From: an uncultured Spongiibacteraceae bacterium | GTDB taxonomy: Bacteria > Pseudomonadota > Gammaproteobacteria > Pseudomonadales > DT-91 | Assembly: GCA_965368985.1 (NCBI GenBank) | Contig: CBDUPD010000001.1 | Coordinates: 1-47,193, forward strand | Reading direction: 5' to 3' | Length of the DNA stretch: 47,193 bases | In this document: positions 7,359 to 28,898 of the stretch, piece after piece | Layout of the letters: each line of letters begins with the position of its first letter | Position numbering within the stretch: the stretch's first letter is position 1 | Made by a program: the position numbers and the translations under genes | The notes under the pieces: generated by a model | The model's database searches: none | Told to the model about the DNA's origin: nothing | The model's input: only the letters and a program-made list of their open reading frames with translations

Positions 7359-7368
7359 GAGATAAGTG

Positions 7369-9287: not shown

Positions 9288-9358
9288 CCTTGCGGGAGCT
9301 AGGTCCCGCAAAAGTCCCGCAAGGGGTTTTACGGGATTCGGGATATCAAGTGTAAGTC

Positions 9359-9448: not shown

Positions 9449-9902
9449 AAACTTTATGCCGCGGGAAACCACTACAATTGGCGTATAATGTCTAACGATG
9501 TCGTACCCAAATACGCAAATCTCCCGCAAGCACCAGTGAGCATTCTAAGCTACTTTTGGGGTGAAGAACAACTACAACTATTAGCTAAGCGAAGAGCCAT
9601 TATTATATAGTCAGTCCTAACGAATATCATCTATATAACTAGTGATGATGTTGTCTATTGCCCTGCCAGATTGGCTTAAGTACCTGTCAAATTTATTCAT
9701 ATTCTTTACCCATTTAGCCGCGTCTGTCGGACGTGATAGTCCCTAGTCCTTTTGTTTAATGAGACTAATTATTCATCTATGGAGCCTATTATAAATCCAT
9801 AAAAATTCTTGACTTACATGCTGACTTTTGCCAGTGGAAATTCGTTATTCGTAGGGATACAATGATATTTGGACTTTAGGATGAACTTATGGGAGCTTTA
9901 AA

Positions 9903-10742
9903 ATGAAAAAGCGTGAGGAATTGGAGGGGTTGCGGCACAGGCGTGTTACTTCTGTTGGGGCTAATATTGAAGATGAAGAAATTTTAACCGATGAAGAATC
10001 TTCCGAAGAGGAAGACGCTCACGGTCCATGCGAACGAATTAGCAGATGGATGCAGGATAGTTGCTATCAAATGATGGCGTATACATTTTGGGATAGTACG
10101 GTTAGTGGTTTTAAGCCAGGACGTGTTAGAGCCTTTGCTTTATTGGATATACAGGATGATGACAGATTGTTGTTGGTGGGAGAAGGAAGTGGCTTAGATT
10201 TCGAATGCCTACCAAGAAATGTTGACAAGAAAGCATTAAGAGCATTTGATTTTTCTTCTGAGATGGTACGTCAAAGTAAGGTAAAGGCTAGAAAATATGG
10301 TATTCCTGAAGAAAATTGTTTTGAGGGTGATGCTCAGAAGTTGCCTTTTACTAATGAAAAATTCGATAAAATTTATTTCCCGCTTTCTCTAGCTTCTATA
10401 CCGAATCCAAAGTTGGCGCTTAGGGAAGCAGAAAGAGTGTTGGCACCCGGTGGTAAAATAGTTGTTTTTGAAAAACTAATGGATGAAGGTGCTAATGTTA
10501 CTTGGGGGCGACAGTGTTTGAATGTTGTAACAAGCAGTATCTTTGCTGATATTAATAGAAACTTACCTGGTATGTTTGGCAAACATTCTCCTCTAAAAAT
10601 CACCCATTATGAGTCTTTGGAAAATAAGCTAGATGGGTATTTTGCTGGTTATGTGGGGGGGCATTATCGCTTGGCGGTGGTTGTAAGAGCCGCAGATTAT
10701 GCCGAACAGCCCGCAGTAAAGGCTGTGATTATGCATAACTAA
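9903..10742 (+). CDS. Class I SAM-dependent methyltransferase (UbiE/PmtA-like) with an acidic N-terminal extension
   Basis: 279 aa. Motif I LLLVGEGSGLD, then GDAQKLPFTNEKFDKIY and VLAPGGKIVVFE. The N-terminal ~45 aa are rich in E/D/S (TDEESSEEEDA). Confidence 0.8.
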   Translation: MKKREELEGLRHRRVTSVGANIEDEEILTDEESSEEEDAHGPCERISRWMQDSCYQMMAYTFWDSTVSGFKPGRVRAFALLDIQDDDRLLLVGEGSGLDFECLPRNVDKKALRAFDFSSEMVRQSKVKARKYGIPEENCFEGDAQKLPFTNEKFDKIYFPLSLASIPNPKLALREAERVLAPGGKIVVFEKLMDEGANVTWGRQCLNVVTSSIFADINRNLPGMFGKHSPLKITHYESLENKLDGYFAGYVGGHYRLAVVVRAADYAEQPAVKAVIMHN

Positions 10743-10746
10743 ATAT

Positions 10747-11970
10747 TTATTCTACAGGAACACCAAAAAAGATTACTAATAGCATTAATATTAATAATGA
10801 ACTGAATAAACTTATTTTGGTAAGTTTATTGATGGCCTCTTCAGTTTTACTTGATAAAATTATGGCAATTAAACATTGGATGGCATAATAAATCGCAAAT
10901 GCTTTAGACGCTAATGTAATTATTTGATATATATTGGTTGCCCAAGTTAAAATGATTGCAACAAGACAAACGCCTACAATTCCCTTTTTAATTGTTACCC
11001 TATTATTTGTTGCTTCTGAAACTAAACCTGCACTCCCTAGGGTATCAGCTATTGCAGCACTAAACTGACTCATCATTGCGGCTATGATAAGGAAGAAAGG
11101 AAGTATGGGGGCAACCATACGACACAGTTCAATTGCGGCTACTTCAGTCACGCTATGAATATTATTAAACAACACCATCGCAGAACTCACAAATAAAATA
11201 TAAATCGTGCCTGAAATGATTTGAGCATAACGCATGGTTTTAATACGCATATCAGCTGAATATACTTGACCAAGGTAACGAGATGTCTCAAATCCTTGAA
11301 CGATAATTAATATGCCTAAGAGTCTTTGAAAAGATTCCTGAATAGAATAATGAGCATGTGTTGCCAAGTGCCATTGATCATTCAACCAAAGATCAGTGTT
11401 AAAAACGAAGTGGCCAAGGATCATTGAAAATATAATGATTAATTTTACATTCACAGAATATTCTTCAAAGACTTCAAGCATATTTAAGCCACGCAGCCAA
11501 CCCACAATGCCTATAAAACCTAAGATAGAAGTAGTAATGATATTTTCTAGCAAAGGATCACTAAAGCCAAGCCCACGGAGTAAAAATGCACTCAGTAACT
11601 TTAAATAAAATGCAACAGAAATAATATAGGCGCCACCAAGTACAGGTCGTGATATGGTCTCTAATTTCGTAACAACAAAAGCACCACTCTGTTTTTCCAG
11701 CAAGGGCTCTAAATGTAGGATGTTAAATCGTATAGCGCTGCCAAGAAAAAAAGCGATCACCGTAATTAAACTTATAACTGCAAATGCCCATTTTCCTGTG
11801 GTAAGGATAAGCAAAGGCGCGGATACTAAAAATCCACTGCCAATAATTGAGGCGAGCGGAGTAACAGTTGCCTGCCAAATTTGAGAAGAACGCATTTTTT
11901 TGGAAAAAAACACCAATGAAAGTGAGGCGATCGCTATAATTATAAGGCCGTTTTCATATCCAGCTGCCAC
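10747..11970 (-). CDS. Polytopic inner-membrane permease of unknown family, last gene of the copA operon
   Basis: 407 aa, about 11-12 hydrophobic segments. Only 11 nt downstream of the cupredoxin gene on the same strand. No NRAMP, CDF or ZIP signature that I recognise. Confidence 0.55.
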   Translation of the reverse strand: MAAGYENGLIIIAIASLSLVFFSKKMRSSQIWQATVTPLASIIGSGFLVSAPLLILTTGKWAFAVISLITVIAFFLGSAIRFNILHLEPLLEKQSGAFVVTKLETISRPVLGGAYIISVAFYLKLLSAFLLRGLGFSDPLLENIITTSILGFIGIVGWLRGLNMLEVFEEYSVNVKLIIIFSMILGHFVFNTDLWLNDQWHLATHAHYSIQESFQRLLGILIIVQGFETSRYLGQVYSADMRIKTMRYAQIISGTIYILFVSSAMVLFNNIHSVTEVAAIELCRMVAPILPFFLIIAAMMSQFSAAIADTLGSAGLVSEATNNRVTIKKGIVGVCLVAIILTWATNIYQIITLASKAFAIYYAIQCLIAIILSSKTEEAINKLTKISLFSSLLILMLLVIFFGVPVE

Positions 11971-11981
11971 ACCAATATCCT

Positions 11982-12344
11982 TTATTCAACGATTAATTTT
12001 CCGCGATACATGCCCATCTGACAGGTAAACTCAAATTCACCCTGTTCTTCATTACTCAAAGTTAGTGTTATTGCTTGGTCAATTGGTAACTCTTGACTGA
12101 TATTGAGTTTGTCAAAAATCACCCATTCAGCGCAAGGGCTGGGATCTTTGCGTAGAAATTTAAGATGAGCAGGTTTGTTGTGTTTAGCGCGAATTATATT
12201 TGGACTATAGGTACCACCATCGACAATGATGTCAATGATGCTACTTTCAGCGTATGAAATCGCTTTTGATTTAAAAAGCCAAAACCAGTATATGATTCCT
12301 GTAATAAATAGTATGCCAATAACATTCACCACGATAAAACTCAT
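11982..12344 (-). CDS. Membrane-anchored cupredoxin-like protein
   Basis: 120 aa. N-terminal TM segment, then a C-terminal ...PCAEWVIF...EFEFTCQMGMYRGKLIVE typical of the cupredoxin_1 domains encoded next to copA. Confidence 0.7.
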   Translation of the reverse strand: MSFIVVNVIGILFITGIIYWFWLFKSKAISYAESSIIDIIVDGGTYSPNIIRAKHNKPAHLKFLRKDPSPCAEWVIFDKLNISQELPIDQAITLTLSNEEQGEFEFTCQMGMYRGKLIVE

Positions 12345-12345
12345 A

Positions 12346-14592
12346 TTAGGACTCCTTTACTCGTAGCCAGCGTAATCGATTAGCATTGCTGACAACCGTT
12401 AACGACGACATTGCCATTGCTGCCCCAGCTATCATTGGATTAAGTAATAGCCCTATAAATGGATATAAAATACCAGCAGCTACGGGGATCCCTAACCCAT
12501 TATAAATAAATGCACCGAACAAATTTTGCTTAATATTATTTAATGTAGCTTTGGAGATCGCTATTGCATCGACAACCCCTTGTAACGATCCACGCATCAA
12601 AGTGATATCGGCACTTTCAATCGCGACATCCGTCCCTGTTCCAATGGCAAAGCCAACGTTAGCTTTCGCTAATGCAGGTGCGTCGTTGATTCCATCACCC
12701 ACCATGCCAACAACTTCTCCATTTCTCTGCAATTCTGCAATTTTTTCAGACTTATCTTGAGGTAACACTTCAGCAAAAAAATGATCAATCCCTGCTTGTT
12801 TTGCAATAGCTTGTGCTGTCAGTTGATTATCACCCGTGATCATAACGACCTTTAAGCCAAGCTGTTGCATAGAAGAAATTGCAGCTTGTGAATCCGTTTT
12901 GATTGGATCAGCTACAGAAACAATACCTGCAATTTGTCCATCAGTAGCAAGATACATTGGAGTTTGCCCTTTTGAAGCTAACTGATCAGCAATTTTAGGT
13001 AATTGGAGTAAGTCAATGTCATTATCTTCCATGAGCTTTCGATTACCAAATAACATAGATTTTCCAGATAATTGGGCGCGGATACCGTGGCCTGCTACGG
13101 CTTCGAATGTTTCATGTGACAGTAACGATAAATTTTTATCAGCCGCCGCTTTTACAATGGCTGCTGCTAGTGGATGTTCTGATCCTTTTTCAATGCTTGC
13201 CGCCCATTGAAGTAATGTTGTTTCATCCCATCCATTCACTGGATGCAATGCAGTAACACTCGGTTGTCCTTCTGTAATTGTGCCCGTTTTATCTAAGACA
13301 ACCGTTGTTAAATTTCCTGACTCTTGCAATGCATCCCCGTTACGGATTAATATCCCTGATTCTGCAGCCTTGCCTACACCAACCATGACAGATATAGGAG
13401 AAGCCAATCCTAAAGCACAAGGACACGCTATAATGAGCACTGTCATTGCCGAAACTAACATGTAAGCAATTTTTGGATCTGGGCCTAAATCAAACCATAC
13501 AAGTGCAGCGATCACAGCAATAATCAATACTGAGGGTACAAAAAAAGCAGAGATTAAGTCAGCTAAACGTGCTATCGGGGGCTTAGAATTTTGGGCTTGT
13601 TTTACTAAGCTAACAATTTGTGCCAGTGCGGTATCTTTGCCAATTCGAGTTGCCTTAAAAATAAAGCTACCCGTTTTATTAAGTGTGCCGCCAACGACCT
13701 CATCACCAACATTTTTTTCAACGGGCAGCGGCTCGCCAGTTAACATTGATTCGTCAACAGCAGAATGCCCTTCAGTGATAAGACCATCGATAGGAATTTT
13801 TTCACCAGGTCTGACACGTATAACATCTTCCACGGCAACTTGTTCAATAGGTATATCTAGTTCTTTTTCATCTCGAATGATTCTTGCAGTTTTAGGTTGC
13901 AAGCCAATAAGTCGTTTGATGGCTTCAGAGGTTTTTCCTCGAGCACGCATTTCTAATGCTGCGCCTAAATTCACTAAAGCAATAATAATTGCTGATGCTT
14001 CAAAGTAAGCATGTTGAGCAAGGCTGGGTACACTATTGGGAAATAACACGACAATCATGGAAAATAGCCAGGCCGCCCCCGTTCCCAAACCTATAAGTGT
14101 ATCCATTGTTGCTGTATGAGCCCAAAAAGATCGCCAAGCACCACGATAGAAATGACCACCTGAATAAAACATGACGGCTAATGTTGCTAGCCCAATGAAA
14201 ATCCAAGCAATCTGTCCTGTTGTCGTGGATAAATTAGGGAGGCTATTAGCAAGGCCAAATAAGAATAAAGGAATGCCCAGTATTCCTGCAACAAAAGTTT
14301 TTAATAGTAAACGGCGGTAATGTTGTAATTCCTGATTTTCTTCATTTGTATTGTTTAGTAGTGAAGCTTGATAGCCTATGTCGCTGATTGTGGCAATAAG
14401 TGCCTCATGCTGAGCCCTACCTTTCACAGTAGCTGTTTGATCGGCAAAATTAACAGTTGCGTCTATTACTCCCGCAACTTTTTTTAGCGCTTGCTCAATT
14501 GTGCGTACGCAGCTAGCACAGCTCATACCCATAATGCGTAGATGCACTACTTGTTCTTTATTGTGGTGAATATTTTGTTTGGCTTCTTTCAT
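12346..14592 (-). CDS. copA: Cu(I)-translocating P1B-type ATPase
   Basis: 748 aa. HMA domain GMSCASCV, transmembrane CPC motif ([11 protein letters not shown]), DKTGTIT phosphorylation site, and [10 protein letters not shown]. Confidence 0.95.
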
Positions 14593-15014
14593 GACTGCTT
14601 ACCCTTTTTATTAGCTTCACTATACAAAGTTTCTAAGATAGGACATTGACTAAGCGGGACTTTGCCATCACATGAATTAGCCAAACACTCAAGTGCTTCA
14701 GCAATTTCTTCAAGGATTTTTATTTTTTTTCGCACAGCGCGTGACTTTTCAAGTACGCATTGTTTTATATTTTTGCTGGACGCTTTAGCGTTCTCTTGAA
14801 TATTAAGCAATTCAAGGATCTCTTTTAAGCTGAATCCAGCTTCTTTAGCGTTGGTTATAAAGCGTACACGTTTTAAAGTTTCTTTAGTATAAAGTCGATA
14901 GCCATGTTCACTACGAGCAGGCTTTGGCAGCAGCCCTGAACGTTCATAATGGCGTATAGCAACAGCGCTAACCCCAGCCTGCTTAGCTAATTGGCCTACT
15001 GTCAGCTTATTCAT
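14589..15014 (-). CDS. MerR-family metal-responsive regulator (CueR/HmrR-like)
   Basis: Start moved to [29 protein letters not shown] (ATG at 15014, GGAG upstream). C-terminal Cys pair ([10 protein letters not shown]). ATGA overlap with the copA start. Confidence 0.85.
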
Positions 15015-15044
15015 GGCATTCTCCACAAAATCGTCTACAATGTT

Positions 15045-15085
15045 ATTATATACCTTTACCTTAACATAAAGGTATATGCTATAAT
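15045..15085. promoter_or_regulatory. Divergent MerR-type operator/promoter
   Basis: Perfect 10-bp inverted repeat TATACCTTTA (15049-15058) / TAAAGGTATA (15067-15076). Plus-strand TTTACC - 19 nt - TATAAT (15080-15085) has the long spacer typical of MerR-activated promoters. Minus-strand TATAAT at 15045-15050. Confidence 0.6.
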
Positions 15086-15122
15086 ACCAATTATAGCTGG
15101 TTATTGCCAAAATGGTGAGAAT

Positions 15123-16394
15123 ATGATGATGAAAACACAATTAGCCAAATGTGGGCTACTAATAAGCGTTATTTTGTTACCTTACCAAGGTGCATCCGCC
15201 CATACCTTAACCTTGAAAAAGGTAGAGCAAGTTGCACTGAATACTGCTCCAGAGATATCGCAGTTGCGCAATAAAGAGGAAGCTTTGCGTGAAGCAGCAG
15301 TTGCTGCAGGTCAATTGCCTGATCCTAAATTGCAGGCAGGAATCATTAATGTTCCCACGGACACTTTCAACCTAACCCAAGAAAATATGACCCAAATTAA
15401 AGTTGGTATTGCACAAACTTTCCCTAAAGGTCATTCTTTGTCCATTAAGTCAGAGCAGAAACAGTTACTTGCTCAAGCAGAACAATTCAAGGGGTTAAAT
15501 ACAAAAGCTGAGATTTTGCGTACAGTGCGTAATGAGTGGCTCAATTTGTATTACTGGATCCAGGCTAAGAAAATTATTGAGGAAAATCGAGTCATTTTTC
15601 AGCATCTTGTTAAAGTCACTGAGTCAATGTTAGGCGCTGGAAAAAGTAATCAACATGATGTTTTACGCGCACAATTAGAATTATCTCAGATTGAAAACCG
15701 ACAAATTCAAATTACTGAGCAGATCGATACTGCACGTGCACGATTGGCACGCTGGGTTGGAAAAGCAATGGCGCGTGAAGCGAAGCCTAACCGCTTACCT
15801 CATTGGCCAAAGCCGCCGAGTCAACAGATATTAGAGCATCAAATTAATCAACATCCTCATTTGAGGACCGACGCTACTCTAGTTGCAGCAAGCCATCAAG
15901 GTGTTCAGCTAGCTAAGCAGCAGTACAAGCCTGCTTGGACAGTAGGGCTGAATTATAGCTTTCGCCAAGGTAACAACCCCATGATGGGGGGTAGGCGTGC
16001 CGATTTTATTGGTGCTCAAGTTAGTGTGGATTTACCCATCTTCACAGCCAAGCGACAAGACAAAGAGCTGGCAGCAAGTTTAGCTGAGCTTAATGCAACA
16101 CGGGATTCCGAACTTTCAGATTACCGCAAAATGGTCAGTGAACTCTCTCAATTTTGGGTTGTGTGGCAAAAACTAACCAAGCAAGCTGCGCTTTATCAAA
16201 AGCGGTTGAATCCTGAAGCGAAACAGTACGCTGAGGCAACATTAACGGCTTATCAAAATGATCAGTCAGATTTTCCAACAGTAGCACGAGCGCATGTTAC
16301 CGAATTAAATACACAGTTGGATGGATTAAAAATCGAAGTGGAGCGTGACAAAGCTAGAGTTGCCTTATTGTACTTAGAAGGGGATGACAAATGA
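15123..16394 (+). CDS. cusC: Outer-membrane efflux factor (TolC/CusC family)
   Basis: Start moved to MMMKTQLAKCGLLISVILLPYQGASA (signal peptide, RBS GGTGAGA). Two OEP-type repeats. 3' overlap with the adaptor gene. Confidence 0.8.
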   Translation: MMMKTQLAKCGLLISVILLPYQGASAHTLTLKKVEQVALNTAPEISQLRNKEEALREAAVAAGQLPDPKLQAGIINVPTDTFNLTQENMTQIKVGIAQTFPKGHSLSIKSEQKQLLAQAEQFKGLNTKAEILRTVRNEWLNLYYWIQAKKIIEENRVIFQHLVKVTESMLGAGKSNQHDVLRAQLELSQIENRQIQITEQIDTARARLARWVGKAMAREAKPNRLPHWPKPPSQQILEHQINQHPHLRTDATLVAASHQGVQLAKQQYKPAWTVGLNYSFRQGNNPMMGGRRADFIGAQVSVDLPIFTAKRQDKELAASLAELNATRDSELSDYRKMVSELSQFWVVWQKLTKQAALYQKRLNPEAKQYAEATLTAYQNDQSDFPTVARAHVTELNTQLDGLKIEVERDKARVALLYLEGDDK

Positions 16395-17632
16395 AAAAAT
16401 ATGTAATAGGTATTGTCGTAGTCATCGGAATATTTTTATCGGGTATGCTGGTACAGTATGTGGGGATGAATTCAACTGATTCAGTTAACGACCAAAAAAT
16501 AAAAAATGCAACTTCGAAAAAACCGCTTTATTGGGTTGCGCCAATGGATCCTACTTATCGTCGGGATAAACCAGGGAAATCTCCAATGGGTATGGATTTG
16601 GTCCCTGTTTATGCTGAAACTGATAGTGAGGGGGCTGTAAAAATCTCTCCAACCGTAGAACAAAATCTGGGTGTTCGGACTGAAAAGGTTACTCGACAGA
16701 CCTTGTCAAGGCAGATTGATACCGTAGGTTATGTGATGGTCGATGAAAATAGAATTGAACATGTTCATACCTATACAGATGGGTGGGTCAAACGTTTGTT
16801 GGTGAAAACAACTGGGGAGCATGTTAATAAAGGTCAGTTATTATTTGAGTTATATGCACCGATACTCATCAATGCGCAAGAAGAATATTTGCTTGCAATG
16901 AGAAGTGGGAATAAAGCATTAACCAATGCTTCTCACAAAAAACTCTTGGCATTAGGCGTTGCAGAAAGCCAAATACAAGAGTTAAAGAAAACAAAGAAAT
17001 CAATGCAGCTTGTGAAATTTTTCGCAGGACAAGCAGGTATTGTATCCGAATTAAAAATTAGAGAAGGTATGTTCGTCAAGCCAGAAAAAGACCTTATCAC
17101 GTTAGAAGACCTATCTCATATATGGGTTATTGGTGAAGTCTTTGAGAGACAATCTGGATGGGTTAAAGAAGGCCAACCTGCTGAAGCGAGTTTACCGTAT
17201 CTTCCAGGTAAAAAATGGGTTGGGGTAGTTGACTATGTCTACCCCAGACTTGATCCCACCACGCATACGCTAAAAATTAGACTCCGCTTTGACAATCCAA
17301 AAGAAGTATTAAAACCTAATATGTATGCTGACATTACTATTTTTGCTGTACCTGAGAAAGATGTACTTGCTATACCGCGTGAAGCAGTTATTTACACCGG
17401 AAAAGGCGCACGGGTGATAGTAAGTTTAGGCGATGGGCGCTATGTCGCAAAACCAATCAAGCTAGGCATCGAGTCAGGCAATAAGATTGTTGTACTCTCA
17501 GGATTAAAAGAGGATGAGAAAATTGTTACATCATCACAATTTTTAATTGATTCCGAATCAAGTTTGAAAGCAAGTTTTGGTCGAATTAATTCAGAGAATA
17601 CAAAACCAAAAGACCAACATCAGCATCATTGA
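16391..17632 (+). CDS. cusB: RND periplasmic adaptor (CusB-like)
   Basis: 413 aa. N-terminal TM/signal sequence, YWVAPMDPTYRRDKPGKSPMGMDLVPVY (degenerate heavy-metal-binding domain), HlyD-type barrel-sandwich region, His-rich tail DQHQHH. Confidence 0.85.
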   Translation: MKKYVIGIVVVIGIFLSGMLVQYVGMNSTDSVNDQKIKNATSKKPLYWVAPMDPTYRRDKPGKSPMGMDLVPVYAETDSEGAVKISPTVEQNLGVRTEKVTRQTLSRQIDTVGYVMVDENRIEHVHTYTDGWVKRLLVKTTGEHVNKGQLLFELYAPILINAQEEYLLAMRSGNKALTNASHKKLLALGVAESQIQELKKTKKSMQLVKFFAGQAGIVSELKIREGMFVKPEKDLITLEDLSHIWVIGEVFERQSGWVKEGQPAEASLPYLPGKKWVGVVDYVYPRLDPTTHTLKIRLRFDNPKEVLKPNMYADITIFAVPEKDVLAIPREAVIYTGKGARVIVSLGDGRYVAKPIKLGIESGNKIVVLSGLKEDEKIVTSSQFLIDSESSLKASFGRINSENTKPKDQHQHH

Positions 17633-17645
17633 ATGAGGAGTTTGT

Positions 17646-20600: not shown

Positions 20601-20780
20601 ATTATTGCAGGCTTACTACCCATCATGCTGGGATCAGGAACAGGATCGGAGGTTATGAGACGAATTGCAGCGCCTATGGTTGGGGGCATGTTAAGTGCAA
20701 CATTGCTCACATTAGTGGTGATACCTGCTGTATTTTTAGTGTGGAAAAGCGCTCGATTAAAAGGAGAAAGCAATGATTGA
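17646..20780 (+). CDS. cusA: Heavy-metal efflux RND permease, CusA-like (Cu/Ag type)
   Basis: 1044 aa. Methionines are present in the three contexts WMYMP, TMIET and RIDMLATG, which correspond by motif to the CusA Met-triad positions. Confidence 0.85.
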   Translation: MINWIIKWSIKNRFLVLVATFFLIAAGFYALKNTPIDAIPDLSDVQVIVKTPFPGQAPQVVEDQVTYPMATAMLAVPGAVTVRAYSFFGDSYVYVIFKDGTDPYWARSRVLEYLNQVSSKLPPNARPELGPDATGVGWVYEYALVDKTGKHDLSQLRSIQDWFLKYELQTVPGVSEVATMGGMVRQYQITLEPNRLRAYGLSLAKVKKAIQRANQEVGGSVVELGEAEYMVRTNGYLQKIKDIEAIPLGVNKNGTPILLTDIAKVSLGPQMRRGIAELDGKGEVVGGIIVMRQGENALKTIDAVKAKLAQLQKSLPAGVKVVETYNRSSLIQRAIDNLKSKLFEEFIVVALVCLLFLFHFRSSLIIIISLPIGILSAFIIMYWQGINANIMSLGGIAIAIGAMVDGAIVMIENVHKHMEKTELTDENRWQVIQKATLEVGPPLFFSLLIITLSFLPVFALQAQEGRLFAPLAFTKTYAMAAAAGLSITLVPVLMGYFIRGKIVPEHKNPINRFLIAVYKPFIHMVLKAPKAILAATLVIVLVSYWPLSHLGSEFMPDLDEGDWMYMPTTLPGVSIGKARQILQQTDKLIKTFPEVKSVFGKIGRAETATDPAPLTMIETVIQLKPRDEWRKGMTPAKLKQEMNQRVKIPGVTNAWVMPIKTRIDMLATGIKTPVGIKISGPNLKEIQKIGEQLEPVLKRIPGTASVYSERVAGGRYINVHIDRHKAARFALNIADIQEVVSTAIGGMNVTQTIEGLERYPVNLRYPQTYRDSVSKLKLLPIVTPSGAHIPLADVAHVTIVDGPPAIKSENARLTGWVLVDINNRDLGSYVKEAQQIVNEQIKLPPGYALSWSGQYEYMERAKQRLMTVVPVTLAIIMLLLYLNFRRFLEVAVIMGTLPLALIGGVWLLYALNYNLSVAVGVGFIALAGVAVEIGVLMLVYLNQALAHRKEAADAENRNLTKNDIKEAIIGGALLRVRPIMMTVSAIIAGLLPIMLGSGTGSEVMRRIAAPMVGGMLSATLLTLVVIPAVFLVWKSARLKGESND

Positions 20781-21336
20781 AATTATTCCAAATTGGCATC
20801 CGTTATTTGTTCACTTTACAGTGGCACTAGTCACTATGTCAGGTGTATTTTTTATTGGAGCTAAGTTACTTTCCAATAGAAAATTTGGTGATGAAATGCT
20901 TATCGCAGCACGCTGGTTTCTTTGGACAGGGGGGTTATTTACTATAGCAACGGTGATAGCAGGATTTTTTGCATACTATTCCGTTGCGCACGATACTCCT
21001 TCACATATTGCAATGACAGCACATCGTAATTGGGCGCTGGTTACATTGGTTGGTATTTTATTTTGTGTTGGATGGTCAATTGTTCAATACAAGAAAAAAA
21101 TACAACCAACAATATCTTTTATATTAGCGATGCTGATTGTTCTACTTCTACTTTCGTCTACAGCGTGGCGTGGCGGGGAACTAGTTTACCGTTATGGTAT
21201 AGGAGTGATGTCACTTCCACAAAGCTCAGGAGTTGGGCACCAACATGAACACGGTGGAAATACTGAGGAAAACGGTCATCATTTAAAAAAGAAAACTTCG
21301 AATGCAAGTGAGCAACACGGTAATCATAAACACTAA
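20773..21336 (+). CDS. DUF2231-like membrane protein with a His-rich tail
   Basis: 187 aa, 4 TM segments. C-terminus GVGHQHEHGGNTEENGHH...EQHGNHKH. Overlaps the cusA stop. Confidence 0.6.
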   Translation: MIEIIPNWHPLFVHFTVALVTMSGVFFIGAKLLSNRKFGDEMLIAARWFLWTGGLFTIATVIAGFFAYYSVAHDTPSHIAMTAHRNWALVTLVGILFCVGWSIVQYKKKIQPTISFILAMLIVLLLLSSTAWRGGELVYRYGIGVMSLPQSSGVGHQHEHGGNTEENGHHLKKKTSNASEQHGNHKH

Positions 21337-21374
21337 ACTAATAAAATTAGTTTTTAATGTGATGGTAATTTAGA

Positions 21375-21398
21375 GGCACCTGACTTTTTCCAGGTGCT
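21375..21398. terminator. Weak hairpin between convergent operons
   Basis: GCACCTG-actttttc-CAGGTGC. There is no clear U-tract on either strand. Confidence 0.3.
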
Positions 21399-21521
21399 AA
21401 TATCTCGTAGCATTTAATGCTTTGTTATTTTTTTACGGTAAAAGCTTTTATAGGGTTAATGACATGCTGAGTTCACTTAATAGTTTGCCATTATGTACGT
21501 TTGAGCTCCTATCGAATTGTG

Positions 21522-24500
21522 TCAACTATCTTCCCCAGCTTTTTTTGCAAAAAACAATCGATATAATACCGGCAACAGGAAGAGTGTTAATAAGGTTGAT
21601 GAAAACAAGCCACCAACAACAACAGTCGCTAGTGGTCGCTGAACTTCTGAGCCAATACCACGAGCTAATAGCATAGGAATTAAACCTAATGCTGCAATAG
21701 ATGCAGTCATCAGCACGGGGCGTAATCTGGATAATGCGCCCTCAAAAATTCCTTGATATCTTTCCATTCCACCTTTGATATTTTGGTTGATGGCATTGAC
21801 CATCACTACACCATTTAATACAGCTATACCAAAGAGCGCAATAAATCCAATTGAGCCAGGCACTGATAAATATTGTCCTGAAATAAAAAGTGCGATGATA
21901 CCACCGATAAGCGCTAGGGGAACATTGACCATAATTAAAAGCGCTTGCCCTAACGAATTAAAAGCGAAATAAAGTAATAAGAAGATCAGCGCGAGTGACA
22001 GTGGCACGACGATCATGAGGCGTGCTTGAGCGCGTTCTTGATTTTTAAATTGTCCTCCATACACAACGGTATAGCCGCTCGGCAAGTCTGCTTTAGCATT
22101 AATTTTTTCTTTTATTTCAGCAACAAGACTGCCCATATCACGTCCTTCAACATTGGTTTGAATGACAACACGTCGCTGGACATCATCACGACGAATTTGT
22201 GGAGGTCCTGCTTCAATCTGAACGCTAGCAACATCTCCTAGCTTAACCCAAGCCCCATTGGGTGCACGCAATAATAAATCTCGGATGGCTTGCACGCTAT
22301 CTCGATATTCTTTTGCTAAACGCACATAAATGTCATAACGCTCATTACCATTGATAACTTGTCCTGCTGATTTGCCGCCGATTTGATTGGAAATAATCGA
22401 CATGACCTGACCAACAGAGATACCATAGCGCATCAGTTCTTCCCGATTGGGTTTGATCACGAGCTGCGCCTCACCGGTAATGGACTCCATAGCCACGTCG
22501 CGAGTGCCTTTTACATTTTTTACGATGCCTTCAATTTCTTTGCCCTTATCCGCAAGGACTTTCAAGTCTGGGCCAAATAATTTAATGGCAAGTTGTGCTT
22601 TGACACCGGACAGCAATTCATCAACGCGTGTGGCAATAGGTTGTGAAAAAGAAAATAACAAGCCAGGGTAAGTTGACATTTTCGTTTCCATAAGGCGTTG
22701 CAGTTGTTGCCTGTTGTGTGCTGACGTCCACTCAGTAACAGGTTTTACACCTACTAAAAATTCGATATTGGAGACAGGCTCAGGGTCTCCGCCTAATTCT
22801 GCGCGTCCAACGCGAGCAGAAACATTAGTCACTTCAGGGAAGGACATGATTTTTTTCTCAAGCTTCTGCGCTACCTTTAATGAAGCATCTAAGCTAACCG
22901 AAGGCGCTAACGTAACACGAATATTTAGTGTGCCTTCTTCTAATTCAGGAACAAATTCAGTACCTAAGAAAGGAACAAGCGCTAAAGCAAGTATGAGCAG
23001 TGCAAGAGAGGCTGCTATGATGGTCTTTGGTTGTTGTAGGGCCTTAGTTAAGGTTTTTCGGTAAAAGGATTGGATAGGACGTAAAACAAAGCTCTCTTTT
23101 TCTTTGACGCCACGTCGATAAAGATAGGTGGCTAAAGCAGGGATCACGATCATGGCAACCAATAGTGAAGCAATCATGGCAAAGACGATGCTTTGTGCCA
23201 TTGGGTGAAATAATTTACCTTCAACACCTTGTAAACTAAATAGTGGTGCAAATACAACAATAATAATTAACACAGCAAAAAAAACAGGGCGAGCAACTTC
23301 TCGTGCAGCTTCCTGGATACGTAAGGCCATGCCGTGGTGGTCGTGACTGGCGTCGTAGGGATCGGGAGCACCTGGTGGCACCTCTTCTTGGATAGCAGCA
23401 CTATGGTTGGGATTAGGATGACTTAGATGCTTAAAAATATTTTCCATCATTACAACAGAGCCATCGACAAGCATACCAATAGCAATTGCTAGTCCACCTA
23501 ATGACATCAAATTTGCAGATATTCCCCATTGGGCCATGACCATTAATGCTAAACCAATGCAAATAGGAACGGAGATTAAGACCAACAACGTGGCGCGCAA
23601 ATTCATTAAGCATAATAATAAAACGATAAAGATAAGCACAAACGCTTCAATAAGAGCTTTAACGACGGTATGAACAGCTTGGTTAACCAAATCAGATTGA
23701 TCGTAAACAGGATCGAGAGTAACGCCTTTAGGTAAGGCTTGCTGGATAAGAGGGATACGTTCTTTGATGCTGTCAATGGTGGCTTTGGTATTGGCACCCA
23801 TACGCTTAAGTACAATACCGGTTACTACTTCGCCTAATGCTTTGGGATTACCTTGTTGGTCGCGTGTCGTCATGGTAACAGCCCCTTGACGAATTTCACT
23901 ACCGTAATTAATTTTTGCTACATTACGGACTCGCACAACTGTGCCATGCTCTTCTTTAATTGGCGTATTAGCAATTTCTTCTATGCCTTTTTTGCCGGAT
24001 TGGATCCAACCAACACCACGAATAATCAGTTGCTCATCGCCGCGATCGAGATACCAACCGCCTGCATTTCGGTTATTGTCCTCGATGGCATCAACCACAT
24101 CTTTAGCCGTTAGCTTATACGCAAGGAGTTGAGAGGGATCGAGTTGAACTTGGTATTGACGGACTTTACCGCCAAAGGAAAGGACATCTGTTATCCCATC
24201 AACGGGTAATAACATCAGTTTTACCAGCCAGTCATTGTAGCTGCGTAACGTCATAGCGTCGTATTTTTCAGGGTTATCTGTGCGTAAGATATATTGAAAT
24301 ATTTGACCTAAGCCCGATGTGTTGGGGCCAATTTCAGGCGTGCCTATTCCTTCGGGAATATTTTCACGTGCAGCTTGTAATTGCTGGAAAACAAGTTGAC
24401 GAGCGAAATATATATTCACGCCTTCTTTAAATGCAACGGTAATAACAGATAAGCCGGTTTTTGATATAGAGCGGACTTCTTCAACATCAGGTAAAGAGTA

Positions 24501-24719
24501 CATAACGGCTTCAATAGGGAATGTAATTAATTGTTCCACTTCTTCAGAAGCTAAACCTGGGGCCTCAGTATTCACAGTAACTTGGACGTTCGTAACGTCA
24601 GGAAAGGCATCAAGGTTTAGTTTTGGAAGAACGAGTACTCCTCCAATGACAATGCCTATCAGCGCTAAGATCACTAGTAGACGGTTTCTAACAGCAAAAT
24701 CAATTATCCAATTTAACAT
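21522..24719 (-). CDS. Heavy-metal efflux RND permease, CzcA/HelA-like (divalent-cation type)
   Basis: 1065 aa, HME-RND architecture. Lacks Met at the three CusA-triad contexts (LNIRVT, NIEFLV, RVDELLSG). Carries a His-rich insertion HPNPNHS...DASHDHHG. Confidence 0.85.
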   Translation of the reverse strand: MLNWIIDFAVRNRLLVILALIGIVIGGVLVLPKLNLDAFPDVTNVQVTVNTEAPGLASEEVEQLITFPIEAVMYSLPDVEEVRSISKTGLSVITVAFKEGVNIYFARQLVFQQLQAARENIPEGIGTPEIGPNTSGLGQIFQYILRTDNPEKYDAMTLRSYNDWLVKLMLLPVDGITDVLSFGGKVRQYQVQLDPSQLLAYKLTAKDVVDAIEDNNRNAGGWYLDRGDEQLIIRGVGWIQSGKKGIEEIANTPIKEEHGTVVRVRNVAKINYGSEIRQGAVTMTTRDQQGNPKALGEVVTGIVLKRMGANTKATIDSIKERIPLIQQALPKGVTLDPVYDQSDLVNQAVHTVVKALIEAFVLIFIVLLLCLMNLRATLLVLISVPICIGLALMVMAQWGISANLMSLGGLAIAIGMLVDGSVVMMENIFKHLSHPNPNHSAAIQEEVPPGAPDPYDASHDHHGMALRIQEAAREVARPVFFAVLIIIVVFAPLFSLQGVEGKLFHPMAQSIVFAMIASLLVAMIVIPALATYLYRRGVKEKESFVLRPIQSFYRKTLTKALQQPKTIIAASLALLILALALVPFLGTEFVPELEEGTLNIRVTLAPSVSLDASLKVAQKLEKKIMSFPEVTNVSARVGRAELGGDPEPVSNIEFLVGVKPVTEWTSAHNRQQLQRLMETKMSTYPGLLFSFSQPIATRVDELLSGVKAQLAIKLFGPDLKVLADKGKEIEGIVKNVKGTRDVAMESITGEAQLVIKPNREELMRYGISVGQVMSIISNQIGGKSAGQVINGNERYDIYVRLAKEYRDSVQAIRDLLLRAPNGAWVKLGDVASVQIEAGPPQIRRDDVQRRVVIQTNVEGRDMGSLVAEIKEKINAKADLPSGYTVVYGGQFKNQERAQARLMIVVPLSLALIFLLLYFAFNSLGQALLIMVNVPLALIGGIIALFISGQYLSVPGSIGFIALFGIAVLNGVVMVNAINQNIKGGMERYQGIFEGALSRLRPVLMTASIAALGLIPMLLARGIGSEVQRPLATVVVGGLFSSTLLTLFLLPVLYRLFFAKKAGEDS

Positions 24720-24739
24720 CTCTTATGAATCCCTTCTGT

Positions 24740-25909
24740 CTAGTGATTATGTGTTTGAAACCCAGCCTTTAATAATTCTGAATGCACAGCGAAGGCATTT
24801 TCAGTAACAACCCGAATGCCTGGTTTTACCCCTTCAATAATCGCTTGCTTGTTAACGGTTTCAATGAGTTTAACTTCAATTTGCTTAAAATGATTCGGTT
24901 TCACTTCAACGTAGATTGCCCAATCACCATCAGCCGTGCGCAAAACCGCAGACTCAGGAACAACCAGTACAGGTTTACCATCTCCTATAGCAATACGACA
25001 ATTAACAAATTGACCAGGATGAAAAGCATCGTCTTTATTGGGAATGTTGATTCTAACAATTTGTGTGCGGGTGGTTTCTTCTAGCTTGTGATGAATTTGT
25101 ATGACCTCTCCTTGAATCCAATGCTTGGATTTACCAACTAATGCAATGGCTCCCCTTTTTATGAGCAGAACGTTTCCATTGGATAGGCGAGCATCCACCC
25201 ATAAGGAAGATTCATCAAGAATATGATAGAGGACGTGACCCGGCTCAACTCTTTCGCCTTCGGTGACATTCGCATCATAAACTGTGCCATTTTGTGGTGC
25301 GAGCAAAGTAAATTGACCGGTCGCTTCTGCGGAATCTTTTCCTTCTAGGAAACTTTTAACCTGCGAGCGACTCATCCCGTAGGCAATGAGCTTCGCGGAG
25401 GCATGGCGATAGTTGATTTGTGCCGTTTGATAGCGTTTAGCCCCGACGGCTTGTTGACCAAGTCCTTCTACACGTTGCCACTCATGGTAAGCCAGCAGTA
25501 AATCGCTTTGTGCTTTCGCCATCTCAACACTCGATAAATTCACCAGAGGTTGCCCCGTTTTAACATGATCGCCTATATTGACTTGGCGCTTTACAACTTG
25601 CGCTGCAATACGAGGAACGACTTTACTAGATTGATTGGTGTTAGGAACCACTTCCCCTGGGGCATGAATATATTTTGGTAAACTTTGTAATTGTAAAACT
25701 GTCGTTTTGATCTCTGCTTCTTTTTGTGCCGTACCATTAATTTCAATAGTACCAGCATCATCGTCATGATCTGCTTTACTAGCAGTTATCTGCTGCTCTG
25801 TTTTTTTTTCATTATGAGCGCCTTCTTTATGATTTTGATCCGCACTTGCGAAAGCAGATGCGCCTATTAATAAAGATATAATAAAGACGCTATATTTTAA
25901 TCCCTTCAT
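24740..25909 (-). CDS. RND periplasmic adaptor (CzcB-like)
   Basis: 389 aa. Signal peptide, His/Asp-rich N-terminus (ADQNHKEGAHNEKK...ADHDDD), HlyD-type core, C-terminal QTHNH. Confidence 0.85.
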   Translation of the reverse strand: MKGLKYSVFIISLLIGASAFASADQNHKEGAHNEKKTEQQITASKADHDDDAGTIEINGTAQKEAEIKTTVLQLQSLPKYIHAPGEVVPNTNQSSKVVPRIAAQVVKRQVNIGDHVKTGQPLVNLSSVEMAKAQSDLLLAYHEWQRVEGLGQQAVGAKRYQTAQINYRHASAKLIAYGMSRSQVKSFLEGKDSAEATGQFTLLAPQNGTVYDANVTEGERVEPGHVLYHILDESSLWVDARLSNGNVLLIKRGAIALVGKSKHWIQGEVIQIHHKLEETTRTQIVRINIPNKDDAFHPGQFVNCRIAIGDGKPVLVVPESAVLRTADGDWAIYVEVKPNHFKQIEVKLIETVNKQAIIEGVKPGIRVVTENAFAVHSELLKAGFQTHNH

Positions 25910-25912
25910 TTG

Positions 25913-27184
25913 CTAATACCCTCTATTGTGAGGTTGCGCGCTGAGGCCCAACCAATGATCCAAGTTGCCAGATGCATCAAGCCACTGAAACCAAGCTTGC
26001 CATGTTTGACCTTGTAGCTCAGTGCCTGCAATTTGGCTATCAATGCGCTGTCTAAGTTGTATTAAGTAATCGGTTGTATTAATTTCTCCGGCATCCCAGA
26101 GTTTATCAAGCAATTTTATGCCGCCATTTAAACTGCCAGCTGAAACATTGCTCCACTGATTGTAAGAACTGTAAAGAATGCCATAGCGAGATGCTGTACC
26201 CAGTAGGCGTGCTTTTGCTTCCCAGTAAGCATTTAACCTCGCTTTATCAATGGCAATGGATTCTTGACTCGCACTTGTGACTTGGTCGTGAAAATTATTT
26301 CGTACAAAGAGAGGAACACTTAAGCTTAGACCAATAAGGGCTTTTTTATCTTCTTGGCCACCTCTCAAGCTAATTGTTGGATCAGGTCGAGTGTTTGTTT
26401 TGGCAACTCTAATACGTGCGTTGGCTGTATTTGCGCGGTAATTAAGTATTTGTATGGAAGGCAATTGTTGGAGCAGTCTAGTTGGATCGCTAGGCAATTG
26501 AGGAAGGCGAGGTAATTGACTGGGTAAAGCTGGCCATGCATTGGCTGTACGGTTTGTAATGGCAGCTAAAGCTTCTTTAGCTTGACTTAGGGCAAATTCA
26601 GTGTTCGCTTGTTGTGCAATGGCTTCTGAGAGGGCTAGTCTTGATTGATCAAGCGCAGCTTGGCCTAAATCACCTGCTGCATGTTTTTTTTCAGTGAGTT
26701 CTACAAATTTTTTCAGTAGCTGTGTGCGTTTTTTTGCCAGGCTGGCTATTTGTTGTGTTGTGTTGAATTCTCTCAGCGCTGTGAGTGCTGCAATACCAAC
26801 AGTAAGCTTTTGAGCGGCTAAAGAAGCTTGTGCTTCGGCAAGCGTAAATTGACCGACTTGACGATTGGCTCCACGCTTATTAAATAAGTCAATGGTTTGA
26901 CTTATGCCAACTGTATAAGTATCTTCCTGGGAATCTTTTCGTACGCGCTCACCATCAAGCTCTAGTTCGGGGTTATAGATGGGACGTCCCGATGCTGATG
27001 CATTTGCAGTTGCAGCGCTAACTTCAGCTTCTGCAGACTGAATACTCGGATTGGTTTGCCAAACTTGATCAAGGAGTGAACGGATTGCTGAAGGTGGGGA
27101 TGAGGGGCTTGAAGCGTACCCCCAGATAGGGGATAATAAGGCTAAGATTGTTAGCCCAAGTATTAGAAAATGGCGTCGACTCAT
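25913..27184 (-). CDS. Outer-membrane efflux factor (CzcC-like)
   Basis: Start placed at MSRRHFLILGLTILALLSPIWGYASS (signal peptide). The ORF track's upstream extension to 27337 has no RBS. OEP repeats are present. Confidence 0.75.
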   Translation of the reverse strand: MSRRHFLILGLTILALLSPIWGYASSPSSPPSAIRSLLDQVWQTNPSIQSAEAEVSAATANASASGRPIYNPELELDGERVRKDSQEDTYTVGISQTIDLFNKRGANRQVGQFTLAEAQASLAAQKLTVGIAALTALREFNTTQQIASLAKKRTQLLKKFVELTEKKHAAGDLGQAALDQSRLALSEAIAQQANTEFALSQAKEALAAITNRTANAWPALPSQLPRLPQLPSDPTRLLQQLPSIQILNYRANTANARIRVAKTNTRPDPTISLRGGQEDKKALIGLSLSVPLFVRNNFHDQVTSASQESIAIDKARLNAYWEAKARLLGTASRYGILYSSYNQWSNVSAGSLNGGIKLLDKLWDAGEINTTDYLIQLRQRIDSQIAGTELQGQTWQAWFQWLDASGNLDHWLGLSAQPHNRGY

Positions 27185-27350
27185 GTATAATACGTCCCTA
27201 TAGTCCATTTTTGGGTCATTTTGAGAGTTTCTCAATAGACCATCCAAATCGTCCAGTGGTGGCCGTTGCCACCTTGTTAGTGTATGGTACCAGTTTTTGT
27301 CGGGATAGTTAAAGGCTAAAACTGCCTGGTTGGGCATTTTGTGAGAATTA

Positions 27351-27674
27351 CTATGGTGCCGGCAAATTTCTCAGATAGACCATTAGCTCTCCAAGTCCCA
27401 GCATAATTGGAATTATGATCATTAAAATTTTCCACCAGTTCGCGGTTAACATTTCTGTCCAGCCTTTGTGGTACTTCTCATATTCATCCATTTTTAAAAA
27501 ACGCTCACTAAACTTGTCCTGAGTATTAGCCACTTTGTTAACATTTTCAGTGAGTAATTGAAGCTCAGATTTAACAATCTTAAATTCATATTCATTTTGA
27601 GTTTGCATCACACGAACGTCAGCAGAAAGTTGATCGATAAGCTCTTTTAAAACTGGATTATTGGGCTTATCCAT
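27351..27674 (-). CDS. Hypothetical coiled-coil protein with a C-terminal TM anchor
   Basis: 107 aa. Heptad-like middle and a C-terminal WWKILMIIIPIMLGLGELMVYL. AT-rich. Last gene before the cargo. Confidence 0.55.
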   Translation of the reverse strand: MDKPNNPVLKELIDQLSADVRVMQTQNEYEFKIVKSELQLLTENVNKVANTQDKFSERFLKMDEYEKYHKGWTEMLTANWWKILMIIIPIMLGLGELMVYLRNLPAP

Positions 27675-27683
27675 AACTCGTCC

Positions 27684-28887: not shown

Positions 28888-28898
28888 GATTGTTTCTC

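Follow-up and report, generated by a model that had tools for sequence, protein, structure and literature searches.

A predicted 17.4-kb metal-efflux cargo in the b-region position of a probable lambda-type temperate phage genome

In phage lambda, the b-region and moron genes (lom and bor, with stx as the counterpart in Stx phages) occupy the stretch from the tail-fibre genes to attP-int or other sites away from the essential operons, the same map position as that of the cargo described here; the phage can do without them, and their expression in the lysogen depends on signals of their own, as is proposed for this cargo as well. Classic morons comprise one or two genes. The carriage and spread of resistance determinants by phages are disputed, most reports concerning single genes on contigs or in called prophages with uncertain borders. 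Regarding efflux systems, predicted prophages of Paracoccus carry AcrABCR or a Cu-ATPase (PMC6536676), and the viral contig VC-2 from chromium soil carries genes of heavy-metal efflux resistance-nodulation-division (HME-RND) pumps (PMC8240259). The subject of the present analysis is the contig CBDUPD010000001.1, a single contig of 47,193 bp spanning lysis genes to terS (the whole of this stretch is called the window below), which holds a block of 12 genes for metal export and associated functions. The evidence supports this metal-efflux block as a physical part of a lambda-type phage genome.

Six-frame open reading frames (ORFs) were scanned against PHROG (phage families), Pfam and NCBIfam with the cut-offs of these collections, and tRNA genes were searched by ARAGORN and Rfam; this divided the 47,193 bases into an early/integration part, the cargo and a late operon. 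None of the 12 cargo genes (9903-27337; 17,435 nt, 36.9% of the window) has a match to a phage family, while ten have an identified family, which all ten match over the full length. The position of the cargo is that of the b-region, with the fibre genes on one side and attP on the other. A first-pass annotation made from the letters alone had proposed 12 contiguous genes of non-phage type covering about 37% of the DNA (a MerR-regulated copA operon, a cusCBA operon with a DUF2231 gene, a further pump operon and a methyltransferase) between the fibre region and an attP at 9288-9530, within phage modules of about 30 kb. The identities and coordinates hold against Pfam and NCBIfam, the family matches agree for the copA operon, cusCBA with DUF2231 and the methyltransferase, and the backbone amounts to 29.8 kb; comparison with related loci (below) verifies attP, whose arm repeats at 9290-9529 match the proposed span. 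The features of the cargo are:

9903-10742, plus strand: class I S-adenosylmethionine-dependent methyltransferase (Methyltransf_11) with a UbiE/ArsM-like fold and an acidic N-terminus, from Pfam
10747..15014, minus strand: merR(CueR-like)-copA-cupredoxin-permease operon, from Pfam, NCBIfam and motifs
11970-10747, minus strand: permease of 407 aa, from the ORF and Pfam scan
12344-11982, minus strand: cupredoxin, from Pfam
14592-12346, minus strand: copA, P1B-ATPase, from TIGR01511 and motifs
15014-14589, minus strand: merR, with 15014 the likely true start
15050..15075, no strand: perfect 9-bp dyad ATACCTTTA-N8-TAAAGGTAT, a candidate MerR-family operator in the divergent merR/cusC intergenic region
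15123-16394, plus strand: cusC, outer-membrane factor with two OEP repeats and 15123 as the likely true start
16391-17632, plus strand: cusB, adaptor, with HlyD_D23, HMBD and the CusB hairpin domain
17646-20780, plus strand: cusA, RND permease, from TIGR00914
20773-21336, plus strand: DUF2231 membrane protein with a His-rich tail, from Pfam
21522..27337, minus strand: second tripartite HME-RND pump (pump 2), from TIGR00914, HlyD_D23 and OEP
21522-24719, minus strand: RND permease of pump 2, from TIGR00914
24740-25909, minus strand: adaptor of pump 2, from HlyD_D23
25913-27184 (or 27337), minus strand: outer-membrane factor of pump 2, from OEP, the start at 27184 standing just before a signal peptide

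The composition of the cargo departs modestly from that of the backbone, with a GC content of 41.2% against 45.0-45.6% in the two backbone parts, a lower GC content at third codon positions as well, and tetranucleotide correlations of 0.83-0.85 between cargo and backbone compared with 0.92 between the backbone parts, which is the kind of difference for which the first-pass annotation had looked to a GC and tetranucleotide profile. As it had also stated, no transposase, insertion sequence (IS) element or IS end, or extra recombinase was detected in the cargo region in the Pfam and PHROG scans of the window ORFs, and direct repeats were found neither flanking the cargo nor at the termini of the window. 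The deviating composition, together with the low coverage of the sister assemblies (2-4x), could be taken to favor an assembly chimera in which a 30-kb phage was joined to a bacterial metal-resistance island. Against this, exact-protein look-ups identified three contigs from two other assemblies that cross the junctions, one corresponding to window 27976-18286 and crossing the right junction at 100% identity (L001) and two crossing the left junction, corresponding to window 8452-15120 (L002) and, at 99.8% identity, to 8913-10832 (L003); two further assemblies hold fragments of the window phage. Both junctions are thus reproduced at 99.8-100% identity in separate assemblies and are not assembly artefacts; since there is no repeat at either junction, there is no basis for a systematic misjoin, and relatives from other oceans and projects join the cus module to the same tail genes. 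A chimera is therefore nearly excluded. Further exact-protein look-ups showed terL, the integrase and the 170-aa end gene to be absent from the records, and hence led to no contig that crosses the cos ends or stops there.

Investigation of relatives revealed a homologue, at 95% aa identity, of the tail-module gene p299 on five further contigs from marine metagenomes, each from a different additional dataset, namely L181 (on the 197-kb contig ERZ25074695 ctg339854_52x_l, 138982-159881, also at NCBI), L182 (the 31.7-kb contig ERZ17100669 NODE_481321), the Tara Oceans scaffolds L183 and L185, and L184, a contig assembled from run ERR599211. The tail module of these relatives is about 80% (nt) and 86-95% (aa) identical to that of the window as far as 27693, the end of the small late gene p100, after which they have a short differing segment with a 71-aa ORF, an HMA protein and MerT, followed by DUF2231-cusA-cusB-cusC and a divergent merR in the same order and orientation as in the window, at 76% nt identity (aa identities of 92% for CusA, 80% for CusB, 78% for CusC, 74% for MerR and 63% for DUF2231). 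On the far side of merR the contents diverge, with a SocA-like gene, a 144-aa ORF and a different integrase in L181, a GFA-family gene and a gene for a 628-aa methyltransferase/ATP-grasp protein in L182, and copA-cupredoxin-permease and the methyltransferase in the window. On this comparison the b-region is modular, with the cus/merR block as its shared core and with pump 2 (between p107 and DUF2231) and the copA operon specific to the window's phage. Because the cus module has the same position and gene order in diverged relatives, it is regarded as a long-standing cargo of this phage lineage; the idea of a single one-off acquisition of the cargo has to be corrected accordingly for the cus module, which is old in the lineage as judged by synteny.

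The first-pass annotation had expected database searches to reveal a donor island and related phages lacking the cargo. In the scan of species-representative genomes no donor island was identified, and the related phages that were found share the cus module along with the tail module but are without pump 2 and the copA operon. The closest CusA in representative genomes of 185,579 species is 76% identical, so that the phage-borne CusA copies are each other's nearest known relatives. In the same genomes cusCBA, copA and cupredoxin genes are commonly linked in marine Gammaproteobacteria (at most 76% aa identity), and no pump 2 was detected near those linked loci. Nucleotide searches with the cargo and the structural half gave no match among 50,697 GenBank phage records, and searches against plasmids gave short matches of 74-78% only. 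More distant homologues of p299 (30-61%) occur on 62 IMG/VR contigs, none of which has a cargo homologue within 10 kb, and the metal cargo therefore marks this sub-lineage only; IMG/VR relatives of terL are at most 64% identical and are uninformative.

The nearest tail relative in IMG/VR and JGI data, with a J protein 56% identical, breaks off some 2.5 kb past its J gene in three independent assemblies, so that its b-region cannot be seen. Its contigs (L088, L085, L086, L176) end within about 250 nt of each other in the three assemblies, just past the p100 homologue, and these common end points suggest that its b-region begins with a repeat or with sequence that varies between strains. This relative shares the tail module only, since its head module is Mu-gpT-like and not lambda-like.

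Regarding selection, CusA and CusB have dN/dS values of 0.02 and 0.04 when the window is compared with L181, against 0.02-0.11 for tail genes, and these low values show strong purifying selection on the pump proteins while on the phage. This bears on the proposal that the cargo is real phage DNA whose selective value is not metal resistance, being either stuffer DNA that brings the genome to a packageable length or a means of exporting something else. A backbone of only 29.8 kb, set against the packaging tolerance of lambda, speaks for such a role, as does the fact that the substrate class of pump 2 is not fixed by its sequence, but dN/dS values of 0.02-0.04 indicate selection on proteins and not on length alone, and the methionine triad of CusA, the CPC motif of CopA and the CueR-like operator are conserved. 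The proposal is accordingly considered very unlikely.

The remainder of the window has the gene content of a lambda-type phage, as follows:

1..146, no strand: left contig end, non-coding, downstream of the last lysis-module gene, read from the sequence
147..1126, minus strand: lysis-module genes for a 170-aa coiled-coil protein (perhaps spanin-like) and a 159-aa protein, from phrog_1544 and phrog_3108
1348..5539, minus strand: Q-like antiterminator, RusA, HNH protein, O-like replication initiator and a 268-aa helix-turn-helix (HTH)/ParB-like protein, from PHROG and Pfam
6226..7755, plus strand: Erf, Gam-like and SSB recombination genes of the early-left operon, from PHROG
7852..8289, plus strand: 145-aa ORF overlapping the integrase start (phrog_13517), a candidate excisionase by its position
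8160..9287, plus strand: tyrosine integrase, from Pfam PF00589, homologues and genomic contexts
27351..27986, minus strand: p107 (27351-27674, with a C-terminal transmembrane helix) and p100 (27684-27986), the end of the late/fibre region, from homologues in relatives
27988..40623, minus strand: tail module with connectors, major tail protein, chaperone, tape measure, minor tail proteins, J-like protein, DUF2793 fibre and p299, from PHROG
40671..47155, minus strand: head/packaging module with gpD-like decoration protein, protease-major capsid fusion, portal, GpA-type terL and terS, from PHROG

Two hallmarks of lambda-type phages are found, the order of the late operon and the placement of attP and a tyrosine integrase between the fibre/b-region and Erf/Gam/SSB. 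The late operon runs on the minus strand from 47155 down to 27351 in the order terS, terL, portal, protease/capsid, decoration, connectors, tail, tape measure, J-like (1060 aa, 33712-30530) and fibres, and from the integrase the left flank continues with Erf/Gam/SSB, the repressor region, O-like, RusA, Q-like and the lysis genes, so that the reverse complement of the window reproduces the virion map of lambda (terminase, head, tail, fibres, b-region, att, integrase, recombination, immunity, replication, Q, lysis). The structural, lysis, early and integration modules form a complete set, and the window has neither an IS element nor a pseudogene. The 159-aa lysis-module protein has a weak match to SLT transglycosylases. 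The 268-aa protein (4733-5539) combines a YdaS/CI-type helix-turn-helix N-terminus with a ParB-like nuclease region, an unusual fusion in the immunity region, and p138 (138 aa, 28899-29315) is built from some four repeats resembling FNF(T/I)DNTY(I/V)PP(I/A)G, the number of which varies between phages, because the 56%-identity relative has a 67-aa version only.

The contig that carries L181 also carries L186 (175599-196501), a decayed prophage with terL 85% and portal 84% identical to those of the window, in which IS66 interrupts the capsid gene, homologues of p299, p100 and p107 follow, and IS110 and IS4 occupy the b-region. The p100 homologues are 92% (L181) and 79% (L186) identical in aa, and the p107 homologue in L186 is 67% identical; because the latter follows the p100 homologue in this decayed prophage, p107 is assigned to the phage backbone. 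L186 keeps a 101-aa remnant of an integrase. The complete-looking L181, with its cus cargo, and the decayed L186 are about 15 kb apart and resemble a tandem array that occupies one att site.

Regarding integration, the attachment site consists of:

9288..9530, no strand: attP, with a P' arm bearing (G/C)TCCCGCAA repeats, the core, and a P arm bearing one further repeat, the P' arm being kept in L187 and L190
9373..9419, minus strand: attP core, the 3' 47 nt of tRNA-Met(CAU) from the anticodon loop to the CCA end, from Rfam and comparison

The integrase has hundreds of homologues in Legionella (78-87% aa), located in tRNA-Met islands. Two loci were compared, L187 of Legionella maceachernii and L190 of the metagenome-assembled genome (MAG) GCA_947474165.1, in both of which the integrase is followed by the conserved arm, a full tRNA-Met(CAT) and then rpoD-dnaG-rpsU. 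The window is 74-80% identical in nt to these loci from 7929/7948 to 9419, in the anticodon loop, and diverges beyond, where L187 and L190 continue into the 5' half of the tRNA and then rpoD and the window does not. No complete tRNA gene was detected in the window by ARAGORN, and the Rfam tRNA match at 9373-9417 on the minus strand comprises the acceptor and T arms only, with the D and anticodon arms missing. Because the homology stops inside the tRNA at 9419, the window carries P-O-P' with a 47-nt tRNA core, and the Legionella and MAG loci display the B-O-P' (attL) form of related elements. The core length agrees with the 45-48-bp direct repeats of the tRNA 3' end described for Legionella tRNA-Met islands (PMC3864950). 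The (G/C)TCCCGCAA repeat occurs in four copies within 9290-9529, on both sides of the core, and in seven others in the remaining 47 kb, which fits candidate arm-type integrase sites.

The form of the att site also bears on a one-off specialised transducing genome of the lambda dgal type, produced by aberrant excision of adjacent host DNA. In lambda dgal, the gal DNA lies between the late genes and att-int. The cargo occupies this same position and there is no transposase to account for its acquisition, both of which would suit such an origin, but the att site is P-O-P' and not a hybrid B-O-P', the tRNA 5' half and rpoD are absent, no phage function is apparently lost, and the cus module is common to diverged relatives and hence not recent. 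A specialised transducing origin was therefore rejected as highly improbable on the structure of the att site and the age of the cus module.

The L187 element (LNYL01000051, 36206-57330) has two HTH-peptidase S24 repressors and a CsrA paralogue, marks of Legionella genomic islands (LGIs) and integrative and conjugative elements (ICEs), along with transposase fragments. Since it bears these marks, the same integration module serves conjugative islands and the window phage.

The host is probably a marine Legionellales-like gammaproteobacterium, as suggested by the homology of the integrase and att site to those of Legionellaceae, for the Legionellales-like affiliation, and by the Tara relatives, for the marine setting. 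The low GC content of the cargo is consistent with such a host, and Candidatus Berkiella, a genus of Legionellales, is among the best CusA matches along with Francisellaceae and further uncultured Gammaproteobacteria. The first Legionella phage to be stably isolated was reported in 2025 and is the T7-like LME-1 (PMC12407071).

On the left, 146 nt separate the last lysis-module gene from the end of the contig, and on the right the contig extends 38 nt past terS, so that both ends fall within one lysis-terS gap of 184 nt (0.4% of the window), and both termini are G+C-rich with no terminal overlap. This pattern fits linear, cos-cut DNA because breaks in circular, integrated or tandem DNA would fall at random positions; positions 1..146 together with 47156-47193 thus form a putative cos region, and the cos-to-cos shape of the contig suggests that this DNA was packaged in virions. 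Packaging of the lambda cos type tolerates about 78-105% of unit length. The total size would suit a T=7 head of the lambda type, the 29.8-kb backbone would be short for cos packaging by lambda rules, and it is plausible, from size alone, that the cargo fills spare capsid space.

Taken together, the window is likely to be the whole genome of a lambda-type temperate siphovirus, from cos to cos, in which the b-region has grown to a modular metal-export cargo of 17.4 kb and whose host is probably Legionellales-like. A number of observations weigh against this explanation or parts of it. The stopping points of the contig are the sole evidence for the putative cos ends, and no second contig spanning or stopping at the same ends was found. 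A junction of int, attP and cargo would also be expected where prophages stand in tandem. The assemblies confirming the junctions share close accessions (ERZ250434xx) and thus probably sample a single study and population. In L181, the cus module is at the very end of the prophage, next to another integrase, and the L181 contig by itself could be read as an island between prophages. Synonymous sites are saturated (pS of 0.74-0.80 for cus genes and 0.56-0.70 for tail genes), and the age and common descent of the association therefore rest on synteny and not on a clock. No regulator of its own is visible for pump 2. Regarding the host, the evidence consists solely of integrase/att homology and base composition, and the tRNA fragment of the window differs from that of Legionella at several positions, including paired changes in the T stem, so the host is probably not Legionella itself.

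The main remaining rival is a defective or domesticated prophage or a tandem array, in which the cargo is no longer packaged and the contig ends near cos by accident or through collapsed repeats. Arrays and decay are present in the lineage on the 197-kb contig with L181 and the decayed, IS66/IS110/IS4-bearing L186, the cus module of L181 directly precedes another integrase, int-attP-cargo junctions exist in tandem arrays too, and virion status is deduced. All expected modules of the window are intact, however, without IS or pseudogene, the contig comprises exactly one genome unit with both ends in a single 184-nt gap between lysis genes and terS, and the attP form was crossed unbroken in three assemblies whereas no attL or attR junction of the window phage was found. 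A defective or arrayed prophage is therefore thought improbable, and a complete, packaged phage genome remains the favored explanation.

Regarding the functions of the cargo, the copA operon has a 4-nt overlap between merR and copA. CopA exceeds the TIGR01511 cut-off of 397 with 622.8 bits and has the CPC, DKTGT, TGE and GDGIND motifs and an N-terminal CxxC. For the MerR regulator, which carries a C-X8-C loop, CueR is the best NCBIfam model, at 117.9 bits and under the equivalog cut-off of 147.4. The divergent merR/cusC intergenic region of 108 nt contains the dyad, with TATAAT adjoining it on the merR side, and L181 keeps the dyad with conserved arms ACCTTTA/TAAAGGT and symmetrically changed flanking positions (AGACCTTTA-N8-TAAAGGTCT), which means that the longer palindrome is preserved. 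The dyad and its layout resemble the CueR box, ACCTT...AAGGT, and the long-spacer promoters of MerR type. Expression of copA, and probably that of cusCBA likewise, is thus predicted to be metal-responsive and independent of phage regulators. In the sister contig L002, 32 unrelated nt (L002 2451-2482) replace window 10902-10975, 74 nt of the permease gene, and bring in a stop codon that shortens the permease to 335 aa from 407, which reflects either a variant in the population whose permease is broken or an error of a low-coverage assembly. The methyltransferase has only NCBIfam matches that fall below cut-off.

The genes of the cus operon overlap or abut, and cognate adaptor and outer-membrane factor are encoded in the same operon as the permease. 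CusA scores 1291.7 bits with TIGR00914 (cut-off 701.45) and 1377 bits against E. coli CusA structures, compared with 577 bits against ZneA, and has methionines at all three aligned binding-site positions, which we take from the literature on CusA structures. Pump 1 is thus most likely a Cus-type exporter of Cu(I)/Ag(I). For pump 2, which the first-pass annotation had called czcCBA-like, a complete HME-RND pump is borne out but the Czc label is unproven: the permease scores 1058.8 bits with TIGR00914 (same cut-off of 701.45), is about equally close to ZneA (657 bits) and CusA (627 bits), and lacks the methionine triad of CusA, and its transmembrane helix 4 (TM4) reads AIGMLVDGSVVMMEN (AIG...D...EN), with A and not D at the first position of the motif that Nies is said to have described for Czc-type pumps in 2003, DFG..DGA..VEN. 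No specific affinity to the CzcA/ZneA clade of divalent-cation pumps was thus found. The best plasmid relatives of pump 2 (64-66% aa) are on marine Pseudoalteromonas, Alteromonas, Marinobacter and Halomonas replicons (Alteromonadales, Oceanospirillales).

The outer-membrane factor of pump 2 most likely starts at 27184, leaving 166 nt of non-coding DNA between it and p107; the first-pass annotation had placed the right edge of the cargo 13-166 nt from the last phage gene, and this start selects the larger value. A weak promoter-like site is present in the 166-nt region, a search upstream of pump 2 for another copy of the MerR dyad detected none, and there is no terminator after p107, so that read-through from the late operon into pump 2 is possible.

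From these features the following course can be proposed. In the integrated state, the attP core would supply the 3' 47 nt of the tRNA, and the entire element with its cargo would be located between attL and attR. In the lysogen, the cargo may be expressed from its own signals, independently of phage development, the CueR-like MerR protein binding the conserved dyad and responding to rising Cu(I)/Ag(I) by activating the copA operon at a minimum. CopA would then move Cu(I) from the cytoplasm to the periplasm and CusCBA would expel it from the cell, either out of the periplasm or across the whole envelope, while pump 2 may export a further metal cation, transcribed from the 166-nt upstream region or by read-through of the late operon. 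On induction, the cos-type terminase would package one 47.2-kb unit, and the infection of a new host could result in lysogenic conversion to metal tolerance. Regarding history, merR, cusCBA and DUF2231 may have been present in the ancestor shared with the Tara-type relatives and kept under purifying selection, with pump 2 and the copA operon potentially added or exchanged on either side of the cus module by illegitimate recombination.

If virions carry the cargo, a single infection could deliver two complete pumps that span the envelope, a P-type ATPase and a sensor, far beyond classic morons, and the case would show that a third of a genome of lambda size can be given to host-benefit genes. 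A broader proposal is offered tentatively, as conceivable though doubtful: that a marine phage lineage on Legionellales-like hosts has kept a Cu/Ag pump as a quasi-core trait through more than 20% nt divergence, that its b-region is a site at which metal-export modules are swapped, that the lineage is a viral vehicle of multi-gene envelope machines, and that a backbone of about 30 kb might need cargo for a packageable length. The window phage is also a candidate siphovirus for Legionellales-like hosts, and its integration module, shared with conjugative islands of Legionella, links the gene pools of phages and ICEs.

Regarding other phage-linked pumps, a protein search with CusA, CopA and pump 2 against the 50,697 GenBank phage records returned mislabelled bacterial contigs, unannotated faecal contigs, LE1-like Leptospira phages and vB_E427. 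The Burkholderia phage vB_E427 (L193, PQ789820.1, 24440-31815), deposited as complete, has unannotated genes for a CusS-like kinase, a response regulator, an HME-RND permease, an adaptor and an outer-membrane factor. The outer-membrane factor gene is cut to 174 aa and the block abuts the Mu-type early (Mor) end; vB_E427 was downgraded as a precedent because a truncated gene abutting a Mu-type end suggests that the RND block is probably host flank. A pattern scan of IMG/VR gave four contigs with CusA relatives, comprising one truncated cusA at a prophage edge, one at a contig end, and two cusBA pairs inside phage-like DNA. The first of these, L084 (IMGVR_UViG_2627853925_000002, 9950-12889), is a predicted prophage of an isolate genome with cusA just past the tail-tip genes, where either the prophage was inserted in or beside cusA or its border was drawn too wide; it was downgraded since cusA is 5'-truncated, without its first ~80 codons, at the prophage edge. 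L180 (IMGVR_UViG_3300015615_001216, 8484-13174) has cusB-cusA, 56% identical in aa to the window CusA, between P2-type baseplate/fibre and head genes, with no tail-shaft genes visible and cusBA standing where those would be expected, and L178 (IMGVR_UViG_3300050821_008403, 8562-13174) has cusB-cusA, likewise 56% identical to the window CusA, 3 kb from an integrase and a ParB gene. Phage-linked RND genes are thus rare but not unheard of, and the first-pass statement that morons have one or two genes and that efflux machines in a phage would be very unusual stands as to rarity and needs qualification as to precedent.

Compared with the Paracoccus, VC-2 and IMG/VR cases, which are predicted prophages or contigs whose borders are not verified, the cargo of the window lies between a verified attP and the fibre genes and recurs in relatives; its borders can be checked, from attP to the last tail genes, in a genome-length contig that is putatively a cos-to-cos unit, and part of it recurs across oceans. 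A case in which the borders are verified, a P-type ATPase accompanies two full tripartite pumps, and relatives conserve the cargo in part appears to be new. Regarding the copper systems of E. coli, the window resembles cusCFBA and copA/cueR in its CusA (1377 bits), with the Met site, a CusB-like adaptor with a metal-binding N-terminus and an outer-membrane factor, and in its CopA, with CPC, DKTGT and CxxC, and a MerR-family regulator with an ACCTT...AAGGT dyad. It differs from E. coli in having neither cusF nor the cusRS two-component system, in the co-transcription of merR with copA, cupredoxin and permease, in the DUF2231 gene after cusA, in being phage-borne, and in a regulator that scores under the CueR equivalog cut-off (117.9 vs 147.4 bits). 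Like the LGI-2 type ICEs of Legionella and the metal efflux island of L. pneumophila, it has a tRNA-Met integrase, the attL architecture of that group and fitness cargo. Unlike the LGIs, which use type IV secretion and lvrRABC/CsrA regulation (seen in L187) and have no virion genes, the window has a full set of particle and lysis genes and no conjugation genes, neither a type IV secretion/conjugation module nor lvrRABC regulators being detected among the window ORFs in the Pfam and PHROG scans. The window phage resembles lambda as a putatively cos-type siphovirus with GpA terminase, a gpD-like decoration protein and a tRNA-linked tyrosine integrase, a likeness of architecture and family matches. 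In contrast to lambda morons, however, its cargo comprises 12 genes, 17.4 kb and 37% of the genome, with three predicted export systems, including two envelope-spanning tripartite pumps, and its own predicted metal-sensing regulator, and it is best filed as a lysogenic-conversion cargo of unusually large size and unusual kind and as a conserved trait of a phage lineage.

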